Shown here: in pieces, positions 2,542-10,368 of the stretch | Numbering within the stretch: the first letter of the stretch is position 1 | Layout of the letters: the number at the start of each line of letters is the position of its first letter | Assembly (NCBI GenBank): GCA_043754515.1 | Contig: JAYUUO010000144.1 | Span: forward strand, 1 to 11,884 | Reading direction: 5' to 3' | Source: Armatimonadota bacterium | GTDB lineage: Bacteria > Armatimonadota > Armatimonadia > Armatimonadales > Armatimonadaceae | DNA: 11,884 bases | Made by a program: the position numbers and the translations under genes | Notes under the pieces: model-generated | The model's database searches: none | Told to the model about the DNA's origin: nothing | The model's input: only the letters and a program-made list of their open reading frames with translations

Positions 2542-4077
2542 ATGTTCCGTTACACCGCCCCGCTTTCTCTCGCCGCCGCTCTCGCCGTCGTTACAGTGCA
2601 CGCCGCGCCCCCGCTCTTGATCCCGCGCCCGAAGCAGATCACTGCCACGGAGGGGGTACCTTTCGCGCTTCCGGCGGTGCCGCGCATTGTGATCGCCCTG
2701 GACGCGACGACAGCCGAAAAACGCGCCGCCGAACTGTTGAAAAAAGAAATGAGCCTTTATTACGGACGGAAAGCAACCACGGTGACGGTGCCGCGTGCGC
2801 AACTTTCTTCGCAAACGCACGCCATCGTGATCGGCGACCGCGCCGCCGCGCCGCCTCCCGCTCGCCCAGAAGGGTACGGAGTAAACGCGACGCGCATGCG
2901 CGTCGCGTTCGCGGGCCGTGACGACGCGGGAACATACTGGGCGGCGCAGACCGTGGCGCAACTCCTGCAACAGGGCGCGGGCGGCGAGCCCGTCATCCGC
3001 GCGGCGAAGATCACGGACTGGCCTTCGATGCGGCTACGCGGCGTCCACCTGTTCCACGGGCAGAACGCGCTCCCGTTCCAGGAGAAACTGATCGAGCGGG
3101 TATTGTCGCGCTACAAGATGAACTCCTTATTTCTGGAGGTCGAGCAGGTACGCTGGGATCACGACCCGTCCGTCGCGCCGAGCTGGGCGGGCACCAAAGC
3201 CGACCTCAAAAAAGAGATCGCGTTCGCGAAGGCGCGCTACGTCACGCCGTACCCGCTCGTGCAGGGCTACGGGCACATGGAGTGGATGTTCAACAAGCCG
3301 CAAAACAAGAAGTACGCAGAGGACCCCGATAAGCCGTACGCGGTCAACTTTACCGACCCGGAGGCAGTTAAGTATGTGGAAGGGTTCATCACCGAGGCGG
3401 ACGATCTGTTTCAGGCACCGGCGTTCCATGTCGGTATGGACGAGGTAACGATGCGCGGGCGGTTCCCGTACCGGTCAAAAAACAAGACGTTCCCGCAGTT
3501 GTACGGCGGCGCGGTGCGGCACTACCAGGATCTGTTCAAGAAGCGCGGCAAGCCGATCTTTATCTGGGCGGACATGGGGCTGTTCCCGGCGGACGTGACG
3601 CCCGATTTCGGCACGGCGCGGACGTCTGCGGAGGCGAAGGCGGTGCGCGACGGCCTGCCGCGCGACGTGATCCTGGCGAACTGGCAGTACGGCGAGCGCG
3701 ACGTCTACCCGTCCATGGATCTGTACAAGAAGGAAGGGTTCAAGAACCTGGTCGCGACCACGTGGAACCGCCCCGGCAACATCTCGGGGTTCAGCAAGAA
3801 GATCGCGCAAATCGGCGGCATGGGCGCGATTCAGAGCACGTGGGCGGGCTACGAGTCGAGCGAGTCGCAACTGGCGGACCCGAAGATGCGCCCGCAGTTC
3901 ACGGCGTTCATCCTCGCCGCCGAGTACTTCTGGAACGGCGGCACCGGCCCCGCGCCCGCGAAACTGCCGTACAACTGGGACGCCGTGTTTGCCCGATCGT
4001 ACGCAGGCGCGTCGGCGTCGGACGGCGTCGCGTATCACGCCGCGAAAGGCCGCGCGGTGGTCGCGCGGCGCAAGTAG
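2542..4077 (+). CDS. Secreted glycoside hydrolase family 20 (beta-N-acetylhexosaminidase-like)
   Basis: Signal peptide MFRYTAPLSLAAALAVVTVHA. GH20 domain-2 motifs LLIPRPKQ, PEGY, DDAGTYWAAQT and ITDWP..RGVHL, plus the catalytic HVGMDEV motif. Start placed at ATG 2542 (AAGGA at 2524-2528) rather than 2440, which overlaps the divergent gene. Confidence 0.9.
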   Translation: MFRYTAPLSLAAALAVVTVHAAPPLLIPRPKQITATEGVPFALPAVPRIVIALDATTAEKRAAELLKKEMSLYYGRKATTVTVPRAQLSSQTHAIVIGDRAAAPPPARPEGYGVNATRMRVAFAGRDDAGTYWAAQTVAQLLQQGAGGEPVIRAAKITDWPSMRLRGVHLFHGQNALPFQEKLIERVLSRYKMNSLFLEVEQVRWDHDPSVAPSWAGTKADLKKEIAFAKARYVTPYPLVQGYGHMEWMFNKPQNKKYAEDPDKPYAVNFTDPEAVKYVEGFITEADDLFQAPAFHVGMDEVTMRGRFPYRSKNKTFPQLYGGAVRHYQDLFKKRGKPIFIWADMGLFPADVTPDFGTARTSAEAKAVRDGLPRDVILANWQYGERDVYPSMDLYKKEGFKNLVATTWNRPGNISGFSKKIAQIGGMGAIQSTWAGYESSESQLADPKMRPQFTAFILAAEYFWNGGTGPAPAKLPYNWDAVFARSYAGASASDGVAYHAAKGRAVVARRK

Positions 4078-4122
4078 GGGGGAGAGCGGGGAACGTTGTT
4101 CCTCCGGTTTGCACACCTGCCC

Positions 4123-4182
4123 AATCTAAGAATGGGTGGAAAACGCGGCAGAAGCCGCCCCGATTTTGGCGTCATTTTATGC
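4123..4182 (+). repeat. Degenerate direct-repeat copy A of the lysA upstream region (partner at 11718-11783)
   Basis: Collinear shared blocks aatctaagaa / g.gtg / aaacgcggc / cgcc.cgatttt / gcg / tcatt.ta, found by manual gapped alignment. Confidence 0.6.
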
Positions 4183-4245
4183 AAGCCATGAAGGTTAATT
4201 ATACAAGTTGTTGATGAGTTCTTCGTACAAGCTGGCCAGCTAAAT

Positions 4246-5844
4246 CTAAGATGAAACTATGTTTCGTGTCCAGGAAGCCGTCCTAGCGACAAGCCTTGCT
4301 GCCTCTTCAGGTATTGTTATTTTATTTCCCGATAATGTGTAGGTAAGCCCACCTAGTTGAATAAGAGCCTGATCGAATACTAACAAAGCATATGTTGATT
4401 GTGTGCAGTATCGTCTTGCTTCATTGCGAATGGCGGTGACAAGTGCCACAGTATTTATTGCAAGGAAATCTGCACTTGTGAGTAGATCAGGGATGGGCAT
4501 GGTCGTCTCATACAAAGTGACGCAACGGTCAACAAGGCTTTCGTTTAAACTATCGCTTTTCCCTGTCGGTGATGTCTGGTGGAGAATCGCAGTCACTTCC
4601 AAGGCAGCGAGATCCTGTGCAGCTGGTTTCCGCCCCATACCTGCTGCGTCGAAAATATAGCCGTTAACTTGCTCGCCTCCCTCATCTATAGCGATATTAG
4701 TTATGTTCAAGTCGCCGTGGGTACAATTGCGAAACTTAACCCACTCTCTACGTTGGTCGTTCAATAGCTCATCAAAAAGCTTGAGAGGAGAGTTACATGG
4801 CTCCAAATCAATATTTCCACCGAACCGTTTCCATGCAGCTTCAAGACGATTACGGTCATGATCCTTCCAAACTAACTCGGCGTAAGAGATTTCGTCTGGT
4901 ATCACTCGACCTAAATCGTCAAGTTGATTAACTATAGCTTGGACAATACCGGGGATTGTCTCGAGTACTTTTGGATCACTCCGTTGTAAATATGATGCTA
5001 AAGAGGTGGGGCGTGCATCGCCTGCGCCAACCTTTTCTGTAACTAGAAGTGCCTTTCGCGGAGTTATCGCATGATGAACGACTTTTATATGTGGCAACTT
5101 ACTCGATAGCGTAAGGCAATCTTTGTGAGTGTAGTCAGCACCATCAGCACCAGTAAACTTAAAGAATAGAGGGCGTGAACAACCACGTCCATCATCTAAG
5201 CAAAACTTGCCTTGCAACACTTTTGTCCAAGACTGGGTGCCTTCACCACTTTTATTGCTTGTAGCACTCCACCAAGAAAAAAGTAATCCTAGACATTGTG
5301 ATTGTCCCAATACGCAACGACGCAGCATATCATCCTCTCGTGGGGAAAGTGGAGGGTAAGTGGCCTCGCTTTCTTGGGAGAATAAATGGATACCAACATC
5401 TGTGTAGCGTTGACATTGCTTGATGGCTTCTTCAATCGCTTCGTCTTCGTCCACGCTCTTGTTCACAGCACGTCCATACCAAAAATTTTCTCGCAATTGA
5501 TCTTGGAGAATATAGCGCGTTTCTGCCAATTGTCCGCTAACAACCAGTAAGGCTGGTACTGGGAAATTTTCCCTTTCTGCGGCTTGTTTTATCAATGCCA
5601 ACCCAGCTTGAGTTCCAGGTTCAGGATCTTCCCCTGCGGTCAGAGGTAATTGAAGGTCCACGATCACTAGATGAAAAGGTTCCCGTGACGCCAGACATTC
5701 CTGAGCATCATTATACGAAGGCACGAGACAAGGCGGAGCCACGTCGTAGTTCGCACTTAAATGATTGAACAAGTTCTGGTAGTTTTTGCGGGCAATCGAT
5801 GCATCGTCTATGATTAAAGTATGAATTCGGCGTGGATAACTCAT
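4246..5844 (-). CDS. Response-regulator receiver domain fused to an APH/choline-kinase-like (TCAD9-like) phosphotransferase domain
   Basis: Receiver motifs: LIIDD, VIVDLQLP (phosphoacceptor Asp), LVVSG and VNK. Kinase-fold motifs: LFFKF (beta3 Lys), LLVTEK, HGDLNITNI (catalytic loop), YIFDA (metal-binding Asp) and DLAALE. The start overlaps the upstream stop (ATGA). Confidence 0.85.
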   Translation of the reverse strand: MSYPRRIHTLIIDDASIARKNYQNLFNHLSANYDVAPPCLVPSYNDAQECLASREPFHLVIVDLQLPLTAGEDPEPGTQAGLALIKQAAERENFPVPALLVVSGQLAETRYILQDQLRENFWYGRAVNKSVDEDEAIEEAIKQCQRYTDVGIHLFSQESEATYPPLSPREDDMLRRCVLGQSQCLGLLFSWWSATSNKSGEGTQSWTKVLQGKFCLDDGRGCSRPLFFKFTGADGADYTHKDCLTLSSKLPHIKVVHHAITPRKALLVTEKVGAGDARPTSLASYLQRSDPKVLETIPGIVQAIVNQLDDLGRVIPDEISYAELVWKDHDRNRLEAAWKRFGGNIDLEPCNSPLKLFDELLNDQRREWVKFRNCTHGDLNITNIAIDEGGEQVNGYIFDAAGMGRKPAAQDLAALEVTAILHQTSPTGKSDSLNESLVDRCVTLYETTMPIPDLLTSADFLAINTVALVTAIRNEARRYCTQSTYALLVFDQALIQLGGLTYTLSGNKITIPEEAARLVARTASWTRNIVSS

Positions 5845-6902
5845 GATACCTCCAGAGGGAAAATCATTCGTACTCGAAACTCACCAACTGCTGTGGATAC
5901 TAAATCTATCGTTCCGTTTAGACGGTTCACTGCTTCCGATATTTCTAGAAGTCCTCGACCACGCCCCATGCCTTTTGTAGAGAATGGGTCACGGAATGCT
6001 TTCTCCGCAGCGAGCCTATCAAAGCCAGGACCGCTATCGCTGATTCGCAGCGTCATTTTATTGTTTGATACTTCCATATGGACAGTGATAATGCAAGGAG
6101 TAGTCACCGCTTGACGAGCGTTGTTCCATATATTCTTAAATACTGCGTTCAGTAGGTGATCACTAGCACGAATAGAAACTGACTCTATTCCAAGGGAGGC
6201 ATGAATACGTAGCTCAGCTGGAACAGAAGTTGTTTCCGCATAACGGGTGGCGCAATTTCTGAGCCAATCATGTAGACAAACAAGACGCATAGTGAAGTAC
6301 TCATCTCCCGTCTCAAATTCGACTAGTCGTCCCACGTTCTTCAAACCAGTTTGAGCAGCATGTATCTGATCATTTAAATTGACATGCAACGGATTAGACT
6401 CGGGAAGGTGCTTGGCGATACTACGTAGCTCGCGTAGGGGAATTTGCATTTCAATCAAAGCATTTCGTACTTCATGTCGTAGCTGCCCCGCAACATACCG
6501 ATATGCTCGTAACAGGTTCTCAGAACTGTAATTATCTTGTCCCTGTCCTTGATCTTGAGATAGAGTTGGCGGAATATCTCGTATTGCTTCTTCAATAGCA
6601 CGACGTGCAAATGTGTCTGTTTCAATCTCTAACCACTGCCTCAAGTGCTCTGCAATACGAACTTTTTGTGAATGAGTACGAACCGCATTTGCGATTACAT
6701 GACGAAGGCGGCCTTCACCCGGGGCAGCTGATTGCAGAAGTATATATTGAACCTGCTGTTCTTCAGTTTCAAGGATACGTGTGAAGGTGAGACGTGCTTC
6801 CCGTGCATCTTCCGTGGCGAGGGTGCGTAGGCGCAGATATATATCGTGTGCCTCATAGGTCGCTTTATCACGTCGCTGGATGTCTTCCTCAGTCACGAGC
6901 AT
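5841..6902 (-). CDS. Soluble histidine kinase with a helical (possibly HEAT-like) N-terminal domain
   Basis: H-box LRHEVRNAL, N-box FKNIWNNARQA, G1 ISDSGPG, F-box PFSTK and G2 GMGRGRGL. No hydrophobic transmembrane segment. Overlaps the upstream gene by 14 nt. Confidence 0.9.
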   Translation of the reverse strand: MLVTEEDIQRRDKATYEAHDIYLRLRTLATEDAREARLTFTRILETEEQQVQYILLQSAAPGEGRLRHVIANAVRTHSQKVRIAEHLRQWLEIETDTFARRAIEEAIRDIPPTLSQDQGQGQDNYSSENLLRAYRYVAGQLRHEVRNALIEMQIPLRELRSIAKHLPESNPLHVNLNDQIHAAQTGLKNVGRLVEFETGDEYFTMRLVCLHDWLRNCATRYAETTSVPAELRIHASLGIESVSIRASDHLLNAVFKNIWNNARQAVTTPCIITVHMEVSNNKMTLRISDSGPGFDRLAAEKAFRDPFSTKGMGRGRGLLEISEAVNRLNGTIDLVSTAVGEFRVRMIFPLEVS

Positions 6903-8772
6903 ACCGTTGGCGTCGTCGCTCGAACGCGTCCTGGCCGCCCTCTAGTAAGTTAACTATTTCGTCTCGACATTCGTCCAACGTACCTGCTTTTTCCACATAA
7001 CCACGTTTTCCGTCGGAGTTCATAACTACAACAAAATCTGCTTCTCCTAATACAGGAATGTTCGCGTTGTGCGTGATGAATATCATCTGTCGCTGACTAC
7101 GCATTTGTTGAATGGTTCCAACCACTGTTTCATATATGAAGTGGTTGTCGAGATTATCTTCCGGTTGGTCGATTACTAAAGGAATATCTCTTCTGGCAAG
7201 GAGCAGGGGCAAAAGTGCAGTGCATTTTTGCCCGCGAGAAAGATCAGATGCGTCTTTGAATATCGGCTCTATAGTAGTGCCAACGTTAAGTTCGATACAG
7301 ATTTGATCATCGGTTGGCAAAACCTCTAAGGCTAAAGGATCTAGTTTGGATTGAAACGCTCCAAGTAACTTTCTGCAACGCTCATCACCAAGAGAAGTTT
7401 GAAGTTCCAGTTCCTGAACATCGTCTGTTTGAATTATTTGTGCAAGCTGTTCCGGCCTCAATCGCTTGAGGGACGCTAAGATGTCTTCATGATTTCGCAG
7501 TCCAGACCCGCGAAGTGCCTCTATCAGGGTTTGCTGATAGACTAAATCATCGGCGTGACGTAATACTCGAACACGTACATTTGTTACGGCTTTACCCTGT
7601 AGTTCTGCAGCAGATTGTGCCCGAAGCTCGGAAACCTGGTCGCGCTCACGAAGAAAATTACCCTTGATATTGCGTCTTTGTTCCAGTAAATTTGTTAGCT
7701 CTACTTCTGCTTCGCTACGTGATTTTTCTACTGCTTCCAACCGAGTTATGGCTTCCTCTACTTTAGCTCTCGCTTGAATCATGTGACTAGCAGTCATATT
7801 CTCAGTTTCGAGTCGCTGGTGCTCCGCTTCCTGGCCCTCATGAGCGGCTAGGAAAGACCGGCGTATATTATGTAGTTCATTAACCCCATGTTCGACCAAT
7901 TCTGTTGCCCGCACCACACTAGATTCCAAAGACTCTGCTATTACATTTATAGCATTATCTGCTTCTTTGCCTATTAAAACATTTTTCGATTCGGTAAAGG
8001 AAAGAATGGGGTACTTGTTGTAAGAATGAGCTTCGTTCAGTGCTACAAGGTCCCGATGACAATCAGCGAGTTGTTTCAACGCGGCATCAACCTGAATCAA
8101 TTCACGTGCGTTGAGTGATCGTTGCTTGGACGCTCGGGTGAGACTTGTTGACATATCATTCACAGATGGTTGTGGGAGTGCTTGTAGACGTATACGTGCA
8201 TCACCAATTTCTTCCGCTTGCTCTTTCAAATCGCCTATCAATCGCCGAGTAGCCTTAATACGATCAGCATTCGCTTCCAGCGAACGTCGCAGGTCTGCAA
8301 TGCGCAATTGCACTTCACGTAGCGATTCAATATTAAGTTCATCGAGCAATGCACGTCGACGCTCTCCCAGATTCTCATCGGCGATTGCTTCGATCTCCGT
8401 GCTACTAAACCCATCAATTGGAAGAAAAGAGCCACGGTCTAAATCTACAGATGGGATTGATATGCCATCACCATTCAGCAGAGTTCCGGACTGACGAAAA
8501 GTGCGACGGATTGTATATATCGCGTGGCTACTACCTGTGATTGCAGCACGCAGTGTTATGCTCGCGGTCCCGAGGTTTGCCTGAATCATATCGGTGCGAG
8601 ACTTACTAGCACCCGTAAGTCCAGCAATCCCGTAGCGAATTGCTTCGGTAAGAGTAGACTTTCCACTCCCGCGAGGTCCTATGACGCAAGTAAGGCCAAC
8701 AGGAAAATGAAGGCGAACTCCCTCAAGGAATCCTCCGCAAATCTCTATCGAATTCAAACTCCAACTTGACAT
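6889..8772 (-). CDS. Coiled-coil ABC/SMC-like ATPase (TrlF/Ppl-type ATPase motifs, no PHP domain), 627 aa
   Basis: Walker A GPRGSGKST, a long heptad-rich centre, signature LSRGQK, Walker B/D-loop LVIDQPEDNLDN, H-loop ITHNANIPV and C-terminal LEGG..AF.RR. Start moved to ATG 8772 because AGGAGA lies 7 nt upstream. Confidence 0.9.
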   Translation of the reverse strand: MSSWSLNSIEICGGFLEGVRLHFPVGLTCVIGPRGSGKSTLTEAIRYGIAGLTGASKSRTDMIQANLGTASITLRAAITGSSHAIYTIRRTFRQSGTLLNGDGISIPSVDLDRGSFLPIDGFSSTEIEAIADENLGERRRALLDELNIESLREVQLRIADLRRSLEANADRIKATRRLIGDLKEQAEEIGDARIRLQALPQPSVNDMSTSLTRASKQRSLNARELIQVDAALKQLADCHRDLVALNEAHSYNKYPILSFTESKNVLIGKEADNAINVIAESLESSVVRATELVEHGVNELHNIRRSFLAAHEGQEAEHQRLETENMTASHMIQARAKVEEAITRLEAVEKSRSEAEVELTNLLEQRRNIKGNFLRERDQVSELRAQSAAELQGKAVTNVRVRVLRHADDLVYQQTLIEALRGSGLRNHEDILASLKRLRPEQLAQIIQTDDVQELELQTSLGDERCRKLLGAFQSKLDPLALEVLPTDDQICIELNVGTTIEPIFKDASDLSRGQKCTALLPLLLARRDIPLVIDQPEDNLDNHFIYETVVGTIQQMRSQRQMIFITHNANIPVLGEADFVVVMNSDGKRGYVEKAGTLDECRDEIVNLLEGGQDAFERRRQRYARD

Positions 8773-8860
8773 TACTGTTCTCCTGAGCAAAATATTACGC
8801 CCCAATACGCTTGCCACTATACTCCAATATTCACCTATCCAGGTGATCATGGACTTTAAC

Positions 8861-8866
8861 ATTATA
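8861..8866 (-). promoter_or_regulatory. Candidate -10 box for the three-gene operon
   Basis: Perfect TATAAT in an AT-rich intergenic stretch about 90 nt upstream of the ATPase start. No convincing -35. Confidence 0.4.
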
Positions 8867-9193
8867 CAACATATTCTGTTGTTTTTTGATATACATACTA
8901 CATATTGATTTTAATTTATCTCCCCTTCTCAAAACAAATGTTTCTGAAGCTTCCTTGTTACGGCGTGGGTCTAATTGTTGGTTGTGTTTGTGGTAGTTGT
9001 AAGTGGTGCAAATAATCGGCGGCAGTTTGCGCTTTACTGGCGGCGGCAAAGATTGCCCGATGATCAAGTTTGTACAATCGTGGGTTAGTTCTCGCCCCGG
9101 TCTGATTCGCTCATCGCCTTCAGTGGCTCCGTGTCCAGGGACCGCTTCAACGCCCATTCCTTCGTCATCCGCTGAAGCACCAGAGTACAAAGG

Positions 9194-9212
9194 TTGCAGG
9201 TATGCCATCGGA
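9194..9212. repeat. 19-nt insertion containing GCATACCTGCAA (minus strand)
   Basis: Removing it restores the reading ...SAAN-LCTLVLQR.... The same 12-mer occurs on the plus strand at 9614-9625. Confidence 0.7.
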
Positions 9213-9247
9213 TTCGCCGCGCTGGTATCGTTCGTGAAGATGCCGAC

Positions 9248-9270
9248 GCGCATTTTGGGACAAAATGCTG
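9248..9270. repeat. 23-nt palindromic insertion
   Basis: gcattttg-gga-caaaatgc (perfect 8-bp arms). Removing it restores KRRTRV-VGIF. Confidence 0.8.
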
Positions 9271-9342
9271 AACCCGCGTCCGTCGTTTCACCTCGCCGAA
9301 GACCCTCTCCAGCACGTTCGTCGTCCGCAGGAGACGGTGATG

Positions 9343-9381
9343 CCAAGAAAATCGCTCCAGGCGATTTCTCTGCCCCGAAGG
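9343..9381. repeat. ~39-nt double-hairpin in-frame insertion
   Basis: aaatcgc-tccag-gcgattt plus CCC-TTCG-GGG on the minus strand. Removing it gives FPSS-HHRLLRTTN, matching typical IS256 spacing. Confidence 0.65.
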
Positions 9382-9608
9382 GGAGGAGGGGAAGGTAAGC
9401 ACGTTCGTCAGACCGCTCTTCAGAACCCCGACTGCTTTCACGAACCGCTTCCCGTATCGCTCCACGAACGCCGCCGCCAGCGCGTCCGCGCTTTCTTTGC
9501 GATGCACGGCGGAAATGCCTTTCAGATCACCGGCAACTTCCGCCATGCCTGCGGCGGGCCGTGGCACAGTATGTTTCTCCGGAAGTGGACCACGCACTGC
9601 TGCCATGG

Positions 9609-9629
9609 CATTTGCATACCTGCAAATAG
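9609..9629. repeat. ~21-nt palindromic in-frame insertion
   Basis: atttgca-tacc-tgcaaat (perfect 7-bp arms). It adds LFAGMQM between ELPTA and PWQQC. Confidence 0.75.
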
Positions 9630-9850
9630 CGCCGTAGGTAGTTCGACTTGCACCGCGCTCTTGACGCTCTCGTGGTCGTCGGAGACCACTAGCTGGACGC
9701 CCGAGAGCCCGTGCCCGATCAGCCCCTTGAGCAGGTTACGATGGGCTTCTTTCTTTCCGCCCGCCGCGGATTCCACGGCAAGAACCTCCCGGAACCCGTC
9801 TTCATTCACACTGATCACAACGAGCAGAGCTAAATCACCCACATGGCCTG

Positions 9851-9877
9851 AGCAAAATGGCTCCGCCATTTGTGCGA
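9851..9877. repeat. ~27-nt palindromic in-frame insertion
   Basis: gcaaaatgg-ctccg-ccatttgtgc. It adds about 9 residues between YLKVNW and GHVGDLALL. Confidence 0.65.
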
Positions 9878-9950
9878 CCCAGTTGACCTTCAAGTACGTC
9901 GCGTCCGAGTAGAGGTACGGGTAACCCAGATACAGGCGGCGGGCGCGGAA

Positions 9951-10094
9951 GCAGGCATTTGTTTTAAGAGAGGTTCTTGTCACTTTCCCTTCCCAAACTG
10001 CGGCTATGTCCCAGTGCTGGGCGGAGGCGGGGTCGGCTAGAGCGACGGAAAGGGCGACGGACGCGAGGAACGGGAGGAGAACACACTTTTTCAT
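9951..10094 (-). pseudogene. 5' stub of a secreted-protein gene, fused in frame to the transposase remnant
   Basis: MKKCVLLPFLASVALSVALADPASA-QHW is a typical Sec signal peptide with an A-S-A cleavage site. A TATAAT lies at 10136-10131. The reading switches to transposase sequence at FRARR (~9950). Confidence 0.65.
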
Positions 10095-10095
10095 A

Positions 10096-10128
10096 TGGTA
10101 CCAACCTGCTTTCTGGTACCAACCTGCT
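10096..10128. repeat. 15-bp direct repeat (two copies, 18-bp period)
   Basis: tggtaccaacctgct at 10096-10110 and 10114-10128, between the TATAAT and the ATG of the stub gene. Confidence 0.9.
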
Positions 10129-10368
10129 GTATTATACCCGGCTGGCGCGGATTCCGGGACGATTTTGCGTAAGTATTTCTACTGTTTTTTGTCCCGGCCT
10201 GCGAACTTTTCAGTGTGCCGTCCGCCTCCCGGTTCCGACGGAACACTAAGCCAATGGCTTCCCCTTTTACCGCGAGCGCGTCCCCCAGCCCCGCGCCTAT
10301 CGCAAGCGCGTCCCCCGCAACCGTGCTTTCGTCGCGGATCGGGTCCGGGCGCGGCGACAGGCCCCCTC

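Follow-up and report, generated by a model that had tools for sequence, protein, structure and literature searches.

Why should the remnant of a dead transposase gene carry, within 0.9 kb, five small blocks of DNA that its relatives lack, most of them able to fold into hairpins? The question is raised by a complete contig of 11,884 bp (C144; "the window" below means this whole stretch), which belongs to an Armatimonadota genome of 313 contigs and 5.13 Mb that is 92.7% complete (G000). The gene belongs to the IS256 family of insertion sequences (IS), and a preliminary description had proposed that it holds five discrete inserts of 19–39 nucleotides (nt), placed there by a mechanism that inserts short hairpins into unconstrained DNA. 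We consider, with about even confidence, that the five inserts derive from genus-specific hairpin repeats of 19–30 nt that were pasted in without target duplication, three of them being clear copies, one a decayed copy, and one an orphan; they are likely non-autonomous and would be moved in trans, as single-stranded DNA hairpins, by a putative Y1/HUH-type host enzyme. For comparison, we used three other species of the same genus (G001, G002, and G003) and two IS256 copies from this genus, L003 (G001:C362) and L002 (G003:C537). The remnant and its frame shift lie as follows.

9085..9975, minus strand: 5′-truncated, frameshifted remnant of an IS256-family (Mutator-type) transposase gene, by Pfam PF00872 and DNA alignment
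9558..9560, minus strand: 1-nt gap relative to L003, a frame shift between two open reading frame (ORF) pieces, by L003 alignment and tblastn

The PF00872 profile matches the two ORF pieces at positions 148–272 and 270–362 of 379, and positions 1–147 are absent, the 5′ part of the gene having been lost. DNA and protein searches found no second copy of the remnant in G000. The same-genus copies L003 and L002 are 76–79% identical to it in protein and 68–71% in DNA. In a global pairwise alignment with window positions 9040–9990 (minus strand, about 71% DNA identity), L003 shows five gaps of 27, 21, 30, 23, and 19 nt. Besides these, there are the 1-nt gap near 9559 and, in the 3′ tail, where the two sequences diverge, two indels of 10 nt. 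We numbered the corresponding inserts i1 to i5 along the minus (sense) strand, from 9877 down to 9193; i1 and i2 are also missing from the translation of L002. Moreover, tblastn was used to align nine intact IS256 proteins from metagenomes with the window. Seven of the nine have a gap of 16 amino acids in the N-side piece, which equals 27 + 21 nt, and eight of the nine align in a separate piece on the C side, in which 24 or 26 positions are gaps; here 30 + 23 + 19 nt make 24 amino acids. The exceptions are P0002, with only 12 N-side gap positions because it has a 9-residue insert of its own at the i1 site; P0033, with 21; and P0003, which aligns as a single piece with 30. The first three inserts (27, 21, and 30 nt) are in frame, and i4 and i5 (23 + 19 = 42 nt) cancel each other out, just as had been claimed for a 23-nt and a 19-nt insert; the gene is dead for other reasons as well, namely its missing 5′ part and the 1-nt gap near 9559. 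The five discrete inserts were thus borne out against L003, L002, and the nine intact proteins, with lengths of 19–30 nt. Their places had been given closely, except that the third block was 9 nt too long (9343–9381 instead of 9343–9372) and the fifth was one base off. The inserts, with the hairpin families to which we assign them, are these.

9848..9877, minus strand: i1, family B hairpin TCGCACAAATGGC-GGA-GCCATTTTGCTCAG; the 30-nt block replaces 3 nt, net +27, in frame
9608..9629, minus strand: i2, hairpin ATTTGCA-GGTA-TGCAAAT; net +21, in frame
9343..9372, minus strand: i3, family A element CAGAGAAATCGC-CTGGA-GCGATTTTCTTG plus one base; clean +30, in frame
9248..9271, minus strand: i4, perfect 8-bp hairpin GCATTTTG-TCC-CAAAATGC; net +23, frame shifted
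9193..9211, minus strand: i5, 19-nt non-folding block; shifts the frame back

Four of the five inserts are hairpins, as the preliminary description had held. When their DNA folds were compared with 200 shuffles per insert, i1 reached −7.4 kcal/mol (z −3.3), i2 −5.8 (z −4.5), i3 −6.9 (z −3.7), and i4 −6.7 (z −5.0), and between 0 and 1 of the 200 shuffles equaled them. The fifth, i5, folds at −1.5 kcal/mol (z −0.7) and is not a hairpin. A search of 8800–10200 against Rfam returned a single chance-level match (E 0.57) and no curated RNA family.

If the blocks are insertions of a mobile repeat, they should recur elsewhere. Searched with their flanks (at most 4 mismatches), the inserts were found in the window only, and copies surfaced after the flanks were removed. 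The clearest case is i3, an exact 30-nt addition (a 29-nt element and one base) between CGGGG and CATC of the IS256 coding sequence, with no target duplication in the L003 alignment. A 31-nt unitig across i3 has a depth about 7–9 times that of the flanking contig, and at an identity of 70% or more the i3 core is found 18 more times in G000, against 0 in an order-3 Markov genome. We defined family A from these copies as CAGAGAAA[T/C]-core-loop-core′-[A/G]TTTTCTTG, of 29 or 30 nt; a regular expression that allows one mismatch per arm finds it at 53 places in G000 and at 3 in the Markov genome. Insert i1 has near copies at C238:6899-6925 (25/27) and C1:65062-65087 (23/27), against 0 in the simulated genome, and belongs to family B, whose pattern is GCACAAAT..ATTTTGCTSAG and which includes relatives with other inner stems. 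The family B expression with one mismatch per arm is noisy (25 real matches, 11 simulated), and about 8 matches are convincing. The two families differ at their ends, which are (T)CGCAC.. and ..GCTSAG in family B and CAGAG.. and ..CTTG(N) in family A. For i2, the 19-nt core ATTTGCAGGTATGCAAATG is identical in G001:C415 (L082, around 1968–1986), next to IS3 and IS256 genes, and its stem TTTGCA-N4-TGCAAA occurs at 5, 4, and 6 loci in G000, G001, and G002, respectively, with controls that are noisy for so short a pattern. The remaining two inserts are less clear. The ends of i4 (GCGCA.. and ..TGCTGA, plus strand) are family-B-like, and i5 is alike to inverted i2 at 14 of 18 positions, GCATACCTGCAA being common to both on opposite strands; i5 may be a decayed inverted copy of i2 that has lost its pairing, a relation that sequence search alone does not distinguish from chance. 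The presumed dispersal therefore holds for i3 and i1 in G000 and for the i2 core in G001, while i4 is unique and i5 lies at chance level.

It might be argued that nothing was inserted, the blocks being native to this IS256 lineage or artefacts of assembly. P0002, a metagenomic protein of 400 amino acids that appears intact, has nine extra residues (LCKCSAFHN) within one codon of the i1 site, and a 164-nt contig from a glacier metagenome, about 88% identical to 9342–9511, begins inside the family A element, so some inserts may be inherited with the IS. Nevertheless, most of the IS256 homologues listed, at 384–402 amino acids, do not contain the blocks, repeats matching the blocks occur at unrelated loci, and for i1 to i3 the family copies elsewhere already refute the idea. 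Moreover, independent Logan assemblies of four runs (from one study, probably the source of this DNA) span 8900–10150 with 0 differences and 0 gaps, and this base-for-base agreement means that the blocks are no artefact of one assembly. We find it very hard to believe that nothing was inserted. The two relatives may instead indicate that in-frame inserts are tolerated, as in P0002, and that some inserts traveled with a still-active IS, or that the site is a hot spot.

To describe how family A is built, we took 34 distinct 29-nt copies, which give 408 pairing cells. The outer arms are near-invariant, while the inner 4–5 pairs and the loop vary. Overall, 96.1% of the cells are paired, compared with 89.9 ± 0.7 in shuffles (0 of 500 as high) and 41–61% with a slid partner. 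Both bases have changed in 21 cells; pair 9–21, for example, stays intact throughout, as U-A in 24 rows and as C-G in 10. These compensatory changes indicate that the stem of family A is maintained as a structure rather than as a sequence. The arms have three fixed irregularities (G-T, A-C, and G-T). The same copies bear on the suggestion, also put forward in the preliminary description, that the hairpins are excision footprints, that is, the remains of two inverted ends after a larger element with terminal inverted repeats left. Such a footprint would indeed be palindromic with a variable centre. We examined 39 exact left arms of family A: 17 pair with a right arm at 10–11 nt, as singlets, and five have another arm 65–4137 nt away, which belongs to a neighbouring small copy, so that no longer element bounded by the arms was found. 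Furthermore, the inner stems covary instead of being ragged, and i3 has no target duplication. The footprint explanation is thus left with next to no plausibility.

Four further families of like build were found in G000, each of them absent from the simulated genome.

GGCAAAA..TTTTGCC: 20 loci in G000
TCTCGAAA..TTTCGAGA: 7 loci in G000
GGTG[G/C]AAA..TTT[G/C]CACC: 6 loci in G000
GTCAAAA..TTTTGAC: about 31 loci in G000

Two side observations concern these families. Around GTCAAAA-CTTG-TTTTGAC lies a longer repeat, CAGGCAATCGTCAAAACAAGTTTTGACTGTACTTGT, with about 31 exact copies in G000, of which 7 lie no more than 300 nt from the end of a contig; perhaps it belongs to a larger element, not assembled here, that hosts other hairpins. 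In addition, a G+C-rich hairpin family, CCCCTCTCCCT-CCGA-AGGGAGAGGGG (for instance at C41:34896 and C68:14572), has about 23–25 copies in G000, often in close inverted pairs, and is built differently from the A-tract hairpins. A self-BLAST of G000 for paralogue pairs that differ by a gap of 12–60 nt gave 2 and 13 cases, a few of them hairpin-like, repeats being poorly assembled in this metagenome-assembled genome (MAG).

The distribution of the families is narrow and uneven. Counted with exact arms, copies of family A number 30 in G000, 7 in G002, 1 in G001, and 0 in G003 (reversed controls 0); beyond the genus, in relatives from the same family and order, G021 has 1 doubtful copy and the 36 other genomes have none. 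The GGCAAAA family follows another pattern, with 20 loci in G000, 9 in G003, 1 in G001, and 0 in G002, and a background level elsewhere. That different families have expanded in different sister species argues that they have been active since the species split. We also scanned one genome per species (185,579 species) for the AAATCG subfamily of family A and obtained 7 loci in two Armatimonadota MAGs, together with 3 further matches (in Bacteroidales and Bifidobacteriaceae) that do not fit family A. By sequence, then, family A appears confined to one genus among the genomes scanned. IMG/VR yielded no family A copy. Additional copies in other flanks occur in ice, glacier, and other metagenomes, and metagenome runs in which this DNA has a small share hold family A in other flanks, together with the native DNA to the right of 9976, without the IS256 remnant as such.

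Do the elements choose their targets? We oriented 33 flank-unique G000 copies of family A by their arms and found a C at position −5 in 27 of them (background 0.31, P = 3e-9), a purine at −3 in 29, and a T at −1 in 20. The C at −5 is also present in 4 of 6 copies from G001 and G002 and in 3 of 4 new sites on Joint Genome Institute (JGI) metagenome contigs. Taken over all independent family A sites, it is found in 34 of 43, the other four positions being merely biased, and the consensus of the pentanucleotide immediately upstream is C-N-R-S-T/G. In i3 this C lies in the IS256 coding sequence and is present in L003 as well, which makes it part of the target and not of the element. On the sense strand, each of the five inserts is preceded by C-N-N-N-N (CTGGG, CGGCG, CGGGG, CGGGT, and CGAAT, with the boundaries of i2, i4, and i5 at ±1–2 nt). 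On the other side, CTTG is followed by an A in 22 of 39 copies (P = 2e-7), and the identity of this base goes with the loop subtype. Among 208 tests of covariation between target flanks and variable element positions, this link between the +1 base and the loop was the only one, and it was not significant after correction. Being skewed and loop-linked, the +1 base seems to be carried along by the element, in agreement with the 30 nt of i3. Two family A copies stand in tandem one base apart, at C143:37041 and 37071.

The loci themselves are also biased. In a survey of 31 loci with family A copies (104 ORF pieces), 10 had transposase domains: four of the IS630 type (DDE_3/HTH), two of the IS3 type (rve), one each of IstB, DDE_5, and ISL3, and a tenth with a DDE_Tnp_4 match below its cut-off. 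Another carrier is the prophage contig C143, on which DNA methylases, a phage metallopeptidase, DUF2280, and a minor tail protein are encoded. A large serine recombinase is found at one locus, and three have DUF488, a weak RHS match, and a weak DUF4351 match. About 14 of the 31 loci gave no domain match, and no housekeeping family was found at any of the 31. Hosts of the inserts include IS256, IS630, IS3, ISL3, and IS21 genes and a prophage. Relative to the host gene, nine copies of family A are sense and eight antisense by our own reading. When we looked in G001–G003 for empty sites corresponding to the prophage stretch C143:8839-16700, the hairpin itself was the sole match. This bias toward transposase and prophage genes, together with the motif with C at −5, argues that target choice is not simply neutral. 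What remains of the mechanism first proposed is repeated and fairly recent insertion, since i1 to i3 belong to dispersed families that expanded unevenly between species; the idea that unconstrained DNA as such is the target is not borne out by these sites.

A site-specific mover is not the only way in which such copies could have arisen. Template switching during replication or repair (snap-back, or copy-choice at microhomology) would need no dedicated mover, and families would then result from the repeated copying of existing hairpins. In family A, the inner stem and loop are found in both orientations relative to the asymmetric arms (CTCGG six times and CCGAG four times; TTGAG four times and CTCAA once), and among 22 types of central 5-mer there are six reverse-complement pairs. 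Likewise, the loop of family B is GGA in i1 and TCC at C1:65067, with the arms in the same orientation. Loop flips are a typical product of template switching in an extruded hairpin and suggest that the hairpins fold in vivo; in that sense they carry the signature of template switching. In addition, i4 is an orphan perfect palindrome, and i1 shares 8 nt (GGAGCCAT) with the target just to the right of its insertion point in L003. However, snap-back gives perfect palindromes, whereas here identical asymmetric, mismatched arms with exact ends recur at dozens of unrelated sites. The C at −5 motif and the tandem copies spaced by 1 nt suggest an enzyme that chooses its sites, and the i1 core GGC-GGA-GCC is also present in the C1 copy, hence it was not templated by the IS256 gene. 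We consider it unlikely that the families arose in this way. Flips of the loop and inner stem have a parallel in chloroplasts, where they occur repeatedly, as minute hairpin-loop inversions, in non-coding DNA; those hairpins are fixed and local, whereas the ones described here form dispersed mobile families.

The explanation that we prefer is that the hairpins would be mobilised in trans as single-stranded DNA, by a host enzyme, and we predict that this enzyme is a nuclease-ligase of the Y1/HUH type. The intermediate would be a single strand, and on either side the cut would fall at a constant distance from a C; the last five bases of the elements in three families (CTTGN, CTSAG, and CCGAT) also begin with a C, before the presumed right-hand cut. 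Copies might accumulate in mobile DNA either because they are purged elsewhere or because mobile DNA is more often single-stranded. We favour such a "peel and paste" process, like that of IS200/IS605, because the hairpin is paired, insertion follows a short motif, there is no duplication, and tandem copies are spaced by one base. Y1/HUH genes are present in G000, one of them intact-looking and conserved and one frameshifted. The candidate genes, including those for reverse transcriptases (RTs) of retron and diversity-generating retroelement (DGR) type, are the following.

G000:C71:14121-14621: intact-looking Y1/HUH gene, located just after trpB, with HUH and Y..Q motifs recognised by eye
C279: second Y1 gene
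C244: decayed IS605 remnant
G000:C263:16997-19828 (L064): type XIII retron RT with SWIM/BRCT partner, PADLOC E 6.6e-145; also in G001 and G002
G000:C197 (L067): DGR-type RT with bAvd, adjoining a cNMP-binding Crp-like regulator

The Y1 gene of C71 is single-copy and divergent; its orthologues share only 56–66% identity within the genus, and most of the family has one. In being single-copy and conserved, it resembles the REP-associated tyrosine transposases (RAYTs; REP, repetitive extragenic palindromic).

Several observations weigh against the Y1/HUH explanation. Genes for Y1/HUH enzymes and RTs, the kinds that the preliminary description had pointed to, were found in G000 (two of the latter), and no enzyme among them is tied to the hairpins. 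Relatives of the C71 gene exist in 36 of 41 genomes (G000 included), compared with family A in one genus; the gene scores 25.8 bits against the IS200 model, for which the cut-off is 55; and the searched flanks of the gene and of two orthologues held no A-tract hairpin, only G+C-rich inverted repeats. The second Y1 gene has one frameshift. Known Y1 transposases use two hairpins, one per end, and these elements have one. As for the inserts, the i4 stem is unique in G000–G003 and has no near copy, i5 is at chance level in sequence search, and i2, i4, and i5 may begin or end 1–2 nt away from the places given. The rule of C at −5 is firm for family A only: it holds in 6 of 8 copies of the ACAG..CGAT superfamily, and with the boundaries used it fails for the G001 copy of the i2 family. 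Finally, assembled contigs, which are uninformative on rare empty alleles, showed no presence/absence polymorphism at the inserts.

The RT genes offer another route, in which transcribed hairpins would be copied into cDNA by a resident RT (type XIII retron or DGR) and pasted in. G000 does carry both RT genes, and the family A arms contain two invariant G-T pairs, which would form G-U wobbles on one strand but not on the other. The authors who described the small dispersed repeats (SDRs) of Nostoc reportedly favoured RNA intermediates as well. Nevertheless, no RT was found in G003 (82% complete), and yet this genome has 9 GGCAAAA loci. Neither the sense and antisense copies of family A (9 vs. 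8) nor the variable pairs, in which G-T type cells (13) hardly exceed A-C type cells (9), have the asymmetry to be expected of RNA, and nothing like the hairpin families was seen beside the retron and DGR loci. All this makes a passage through RNA quite improbable.

A bolder form of the Y1/HUH explanation is that one Armatimonadota genus has a hairpin-pasting machinery of an undescribed kind. Such a machinery would recognise shape (A-tract, G+C core, T-tract, and bulged arms) and not sequence, insert single-hairpin units of 19–30 nt five bases after a C, and prefer transposase and prophage genes, so that in effect it would serve as genome defence, and the domesticated, fast-evolving Y1/HUH gene beside trpB would be its candidate engine. 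We put this forward as a speculation, and one that is rather doubtful.

How do these elements compare with known systems? They are most like SDR1–8 of the Nostocaceae (Elhai et al. 2008, Genome Res 18:1484): the size is about 21–27 nt there and 19–30 nt here, the hairpin is kept by compensatory changes, several families have the fold in common and little of the sequence, insertions are nested or adjacent, a single lineage is affected, and there is no gene of their own and no known mover. The features of this kind of repeat, that is, dispersed 20–30-nt hairpins with compensatory changes and recent mobility (copies inside other mobile elements, differences between species), were all found here. 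On the other hand, the present elements come from the phylum Armatimonadota and are probably unrelated to the Nostocaceae SDRs in sequence, and their sites are mainly transposase and prophage genes, with C-N-R-S-T/G upstream. Some SDRs of Nostoc sit in heptamer repeats. SDR5 sits in HIP1 octamers, and no SDR was found outside the Nostocaceae, according to PMC5861425; SDRs are listed among unexplained short palindromic repeats in PMC3116915. Our full-text literature search turned up no description of such elements, whether from Armatimonadota or from any other group outside the cyanobacteria (Nostocaceae). Very small mobile hairpin repeats are thus already known as a kind, and the elements described here are another, genus-specific instance of it.

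The preliminary description had offered two analogies, and while the Nostoc repeats proved apt, REP elements did not, their defining features being absent. According to PMC3116915 and PMC3733652, REPs and REPINs (REP doublets forming hairpins) with their RAYTs are similar in being imperfect palindromes of 20–40 nt that fold single-stranded, in their high copy number and restriction to a lineage, and in the HUH mechanism proposed for them. However, our elements lack the unpaired GTAG/CGTC end tag (described in PMC3733652), and their flanks are not conserved apart from the C at −5. The copies are inside transposase, methylase, and other ORFs and not extragenic; they are singlets and not inverted doublets. 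Nor was a hairpin cluster seen in the searched flanks of the C71 Y1 gene, as REPs flanking a RAYT would be.

Members of the IS200/IS605 family have two distinct subterminal hairpins, are at least about 10 times longer, and have tnpA in the element or in a relative, unlike the single hairpin of about 30 nt with its looser motif that we describe. What the two have in common, judging from IS608 and ISDra2 (PMC5934647, PMC3201880, and PMC5027513), is insertion 3′ of a short sequence, more loosely specified in our elements, without duplication, a requirement for imperfect hairpins, and cleavage at a set distance from the hairpin. An IS200/IS605 derivative like the palindrome-associated transposable elements (PATEs) fits poorly, given one hairpin per element and Y1 genes that are degenerate or unlinked to the hairpins. 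Miniature inverted-repeat transposable elements (MITEs) have the terminal inverted repeats of a parent DDE transposon and a target duplication and measure about 50–500 bp; here the elements are of 19–30 nt, there is no duplication, and no parent element with these termini was found. Repeats of clustered regularly interspaced short palindromic repeat (CRISPR) arrays were discarded too, as the hairpins are dispersed and differ in sequence from the genome's own CRISPR repeat, GTTTCCATCCCACACTGGTTCGATTAGAGG. The latter has 81 copies in G000 with a period of about 67 nt, on C61 (70), C302 (7), and C77 (4), and accounts for the 10-mers that are most strongly over-represented in G000.

Elements of about 30 nt mark the lower end of the size range in which DNA behaves as a mobile entity, and to our knowledge the Nostoc SDRs are the only parallel described, without a mechanism since 2008. 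The Armatimonadota repeats provide a second, independent system outside cyanobacteria, with pairs of filled and empty sites, a measurable motif, species-specific families, and hosts whose intact sequence is known; the movement of a single 30-nt hairpin thereby becomes directly testable in vitro with oligonucleotides. If such an activity exists, a hairpin-guided single-strand integrase that leaves no duplication would be of interest as a tool, and if the bias toward mobile DNA reflects active targeting, it would represent a new form of anti-transposon defence. For annotation, inserts of this type explain many transposase genes in these MAGs that appear frameshifted or oddly long.

Regarding the surroundings of the remnant, the IS256 remnant forms the closing edge of a low-G+C island at about 4050–9000, whose G+C content is 0.43–0.51, compared with about 0.66 and a range of 0.58–0.71 in the rest of the window. 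The island holds three genes.

6889-8862, minus strand: SMC/AAA_23-like ATPase
5841-6902, minus strand: HATPase_c (histidine-kinase-type ATPase) protein
4246-5844, minus strand: receiver/TCAD9 protein

None of the hairpin families occurs inside these intact defence-like genes, in contrast with the five inserts in the 0.9 kb of dead IS256. The stretch 9976–10124 is common to contigs from ice and glacier metagenomes of four other studies, and to the left of 9976 those contigs diverge, which places the junction between native DNA and the island with its IS at 9975/9976. An ORF with a signal-peptide-like start (MKKCVLLPFLASVALSVALA.., from 10094, minus strand) reads directly into the IS256 remnant; probably, a native gene for a secreted protein was cut when the island or the IS arrived. 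A short direct repeat, TGGTACCAACCTGCT, is present in two copies at 10096–10128, and one glacier-metagenome contig has an additional copy of it.

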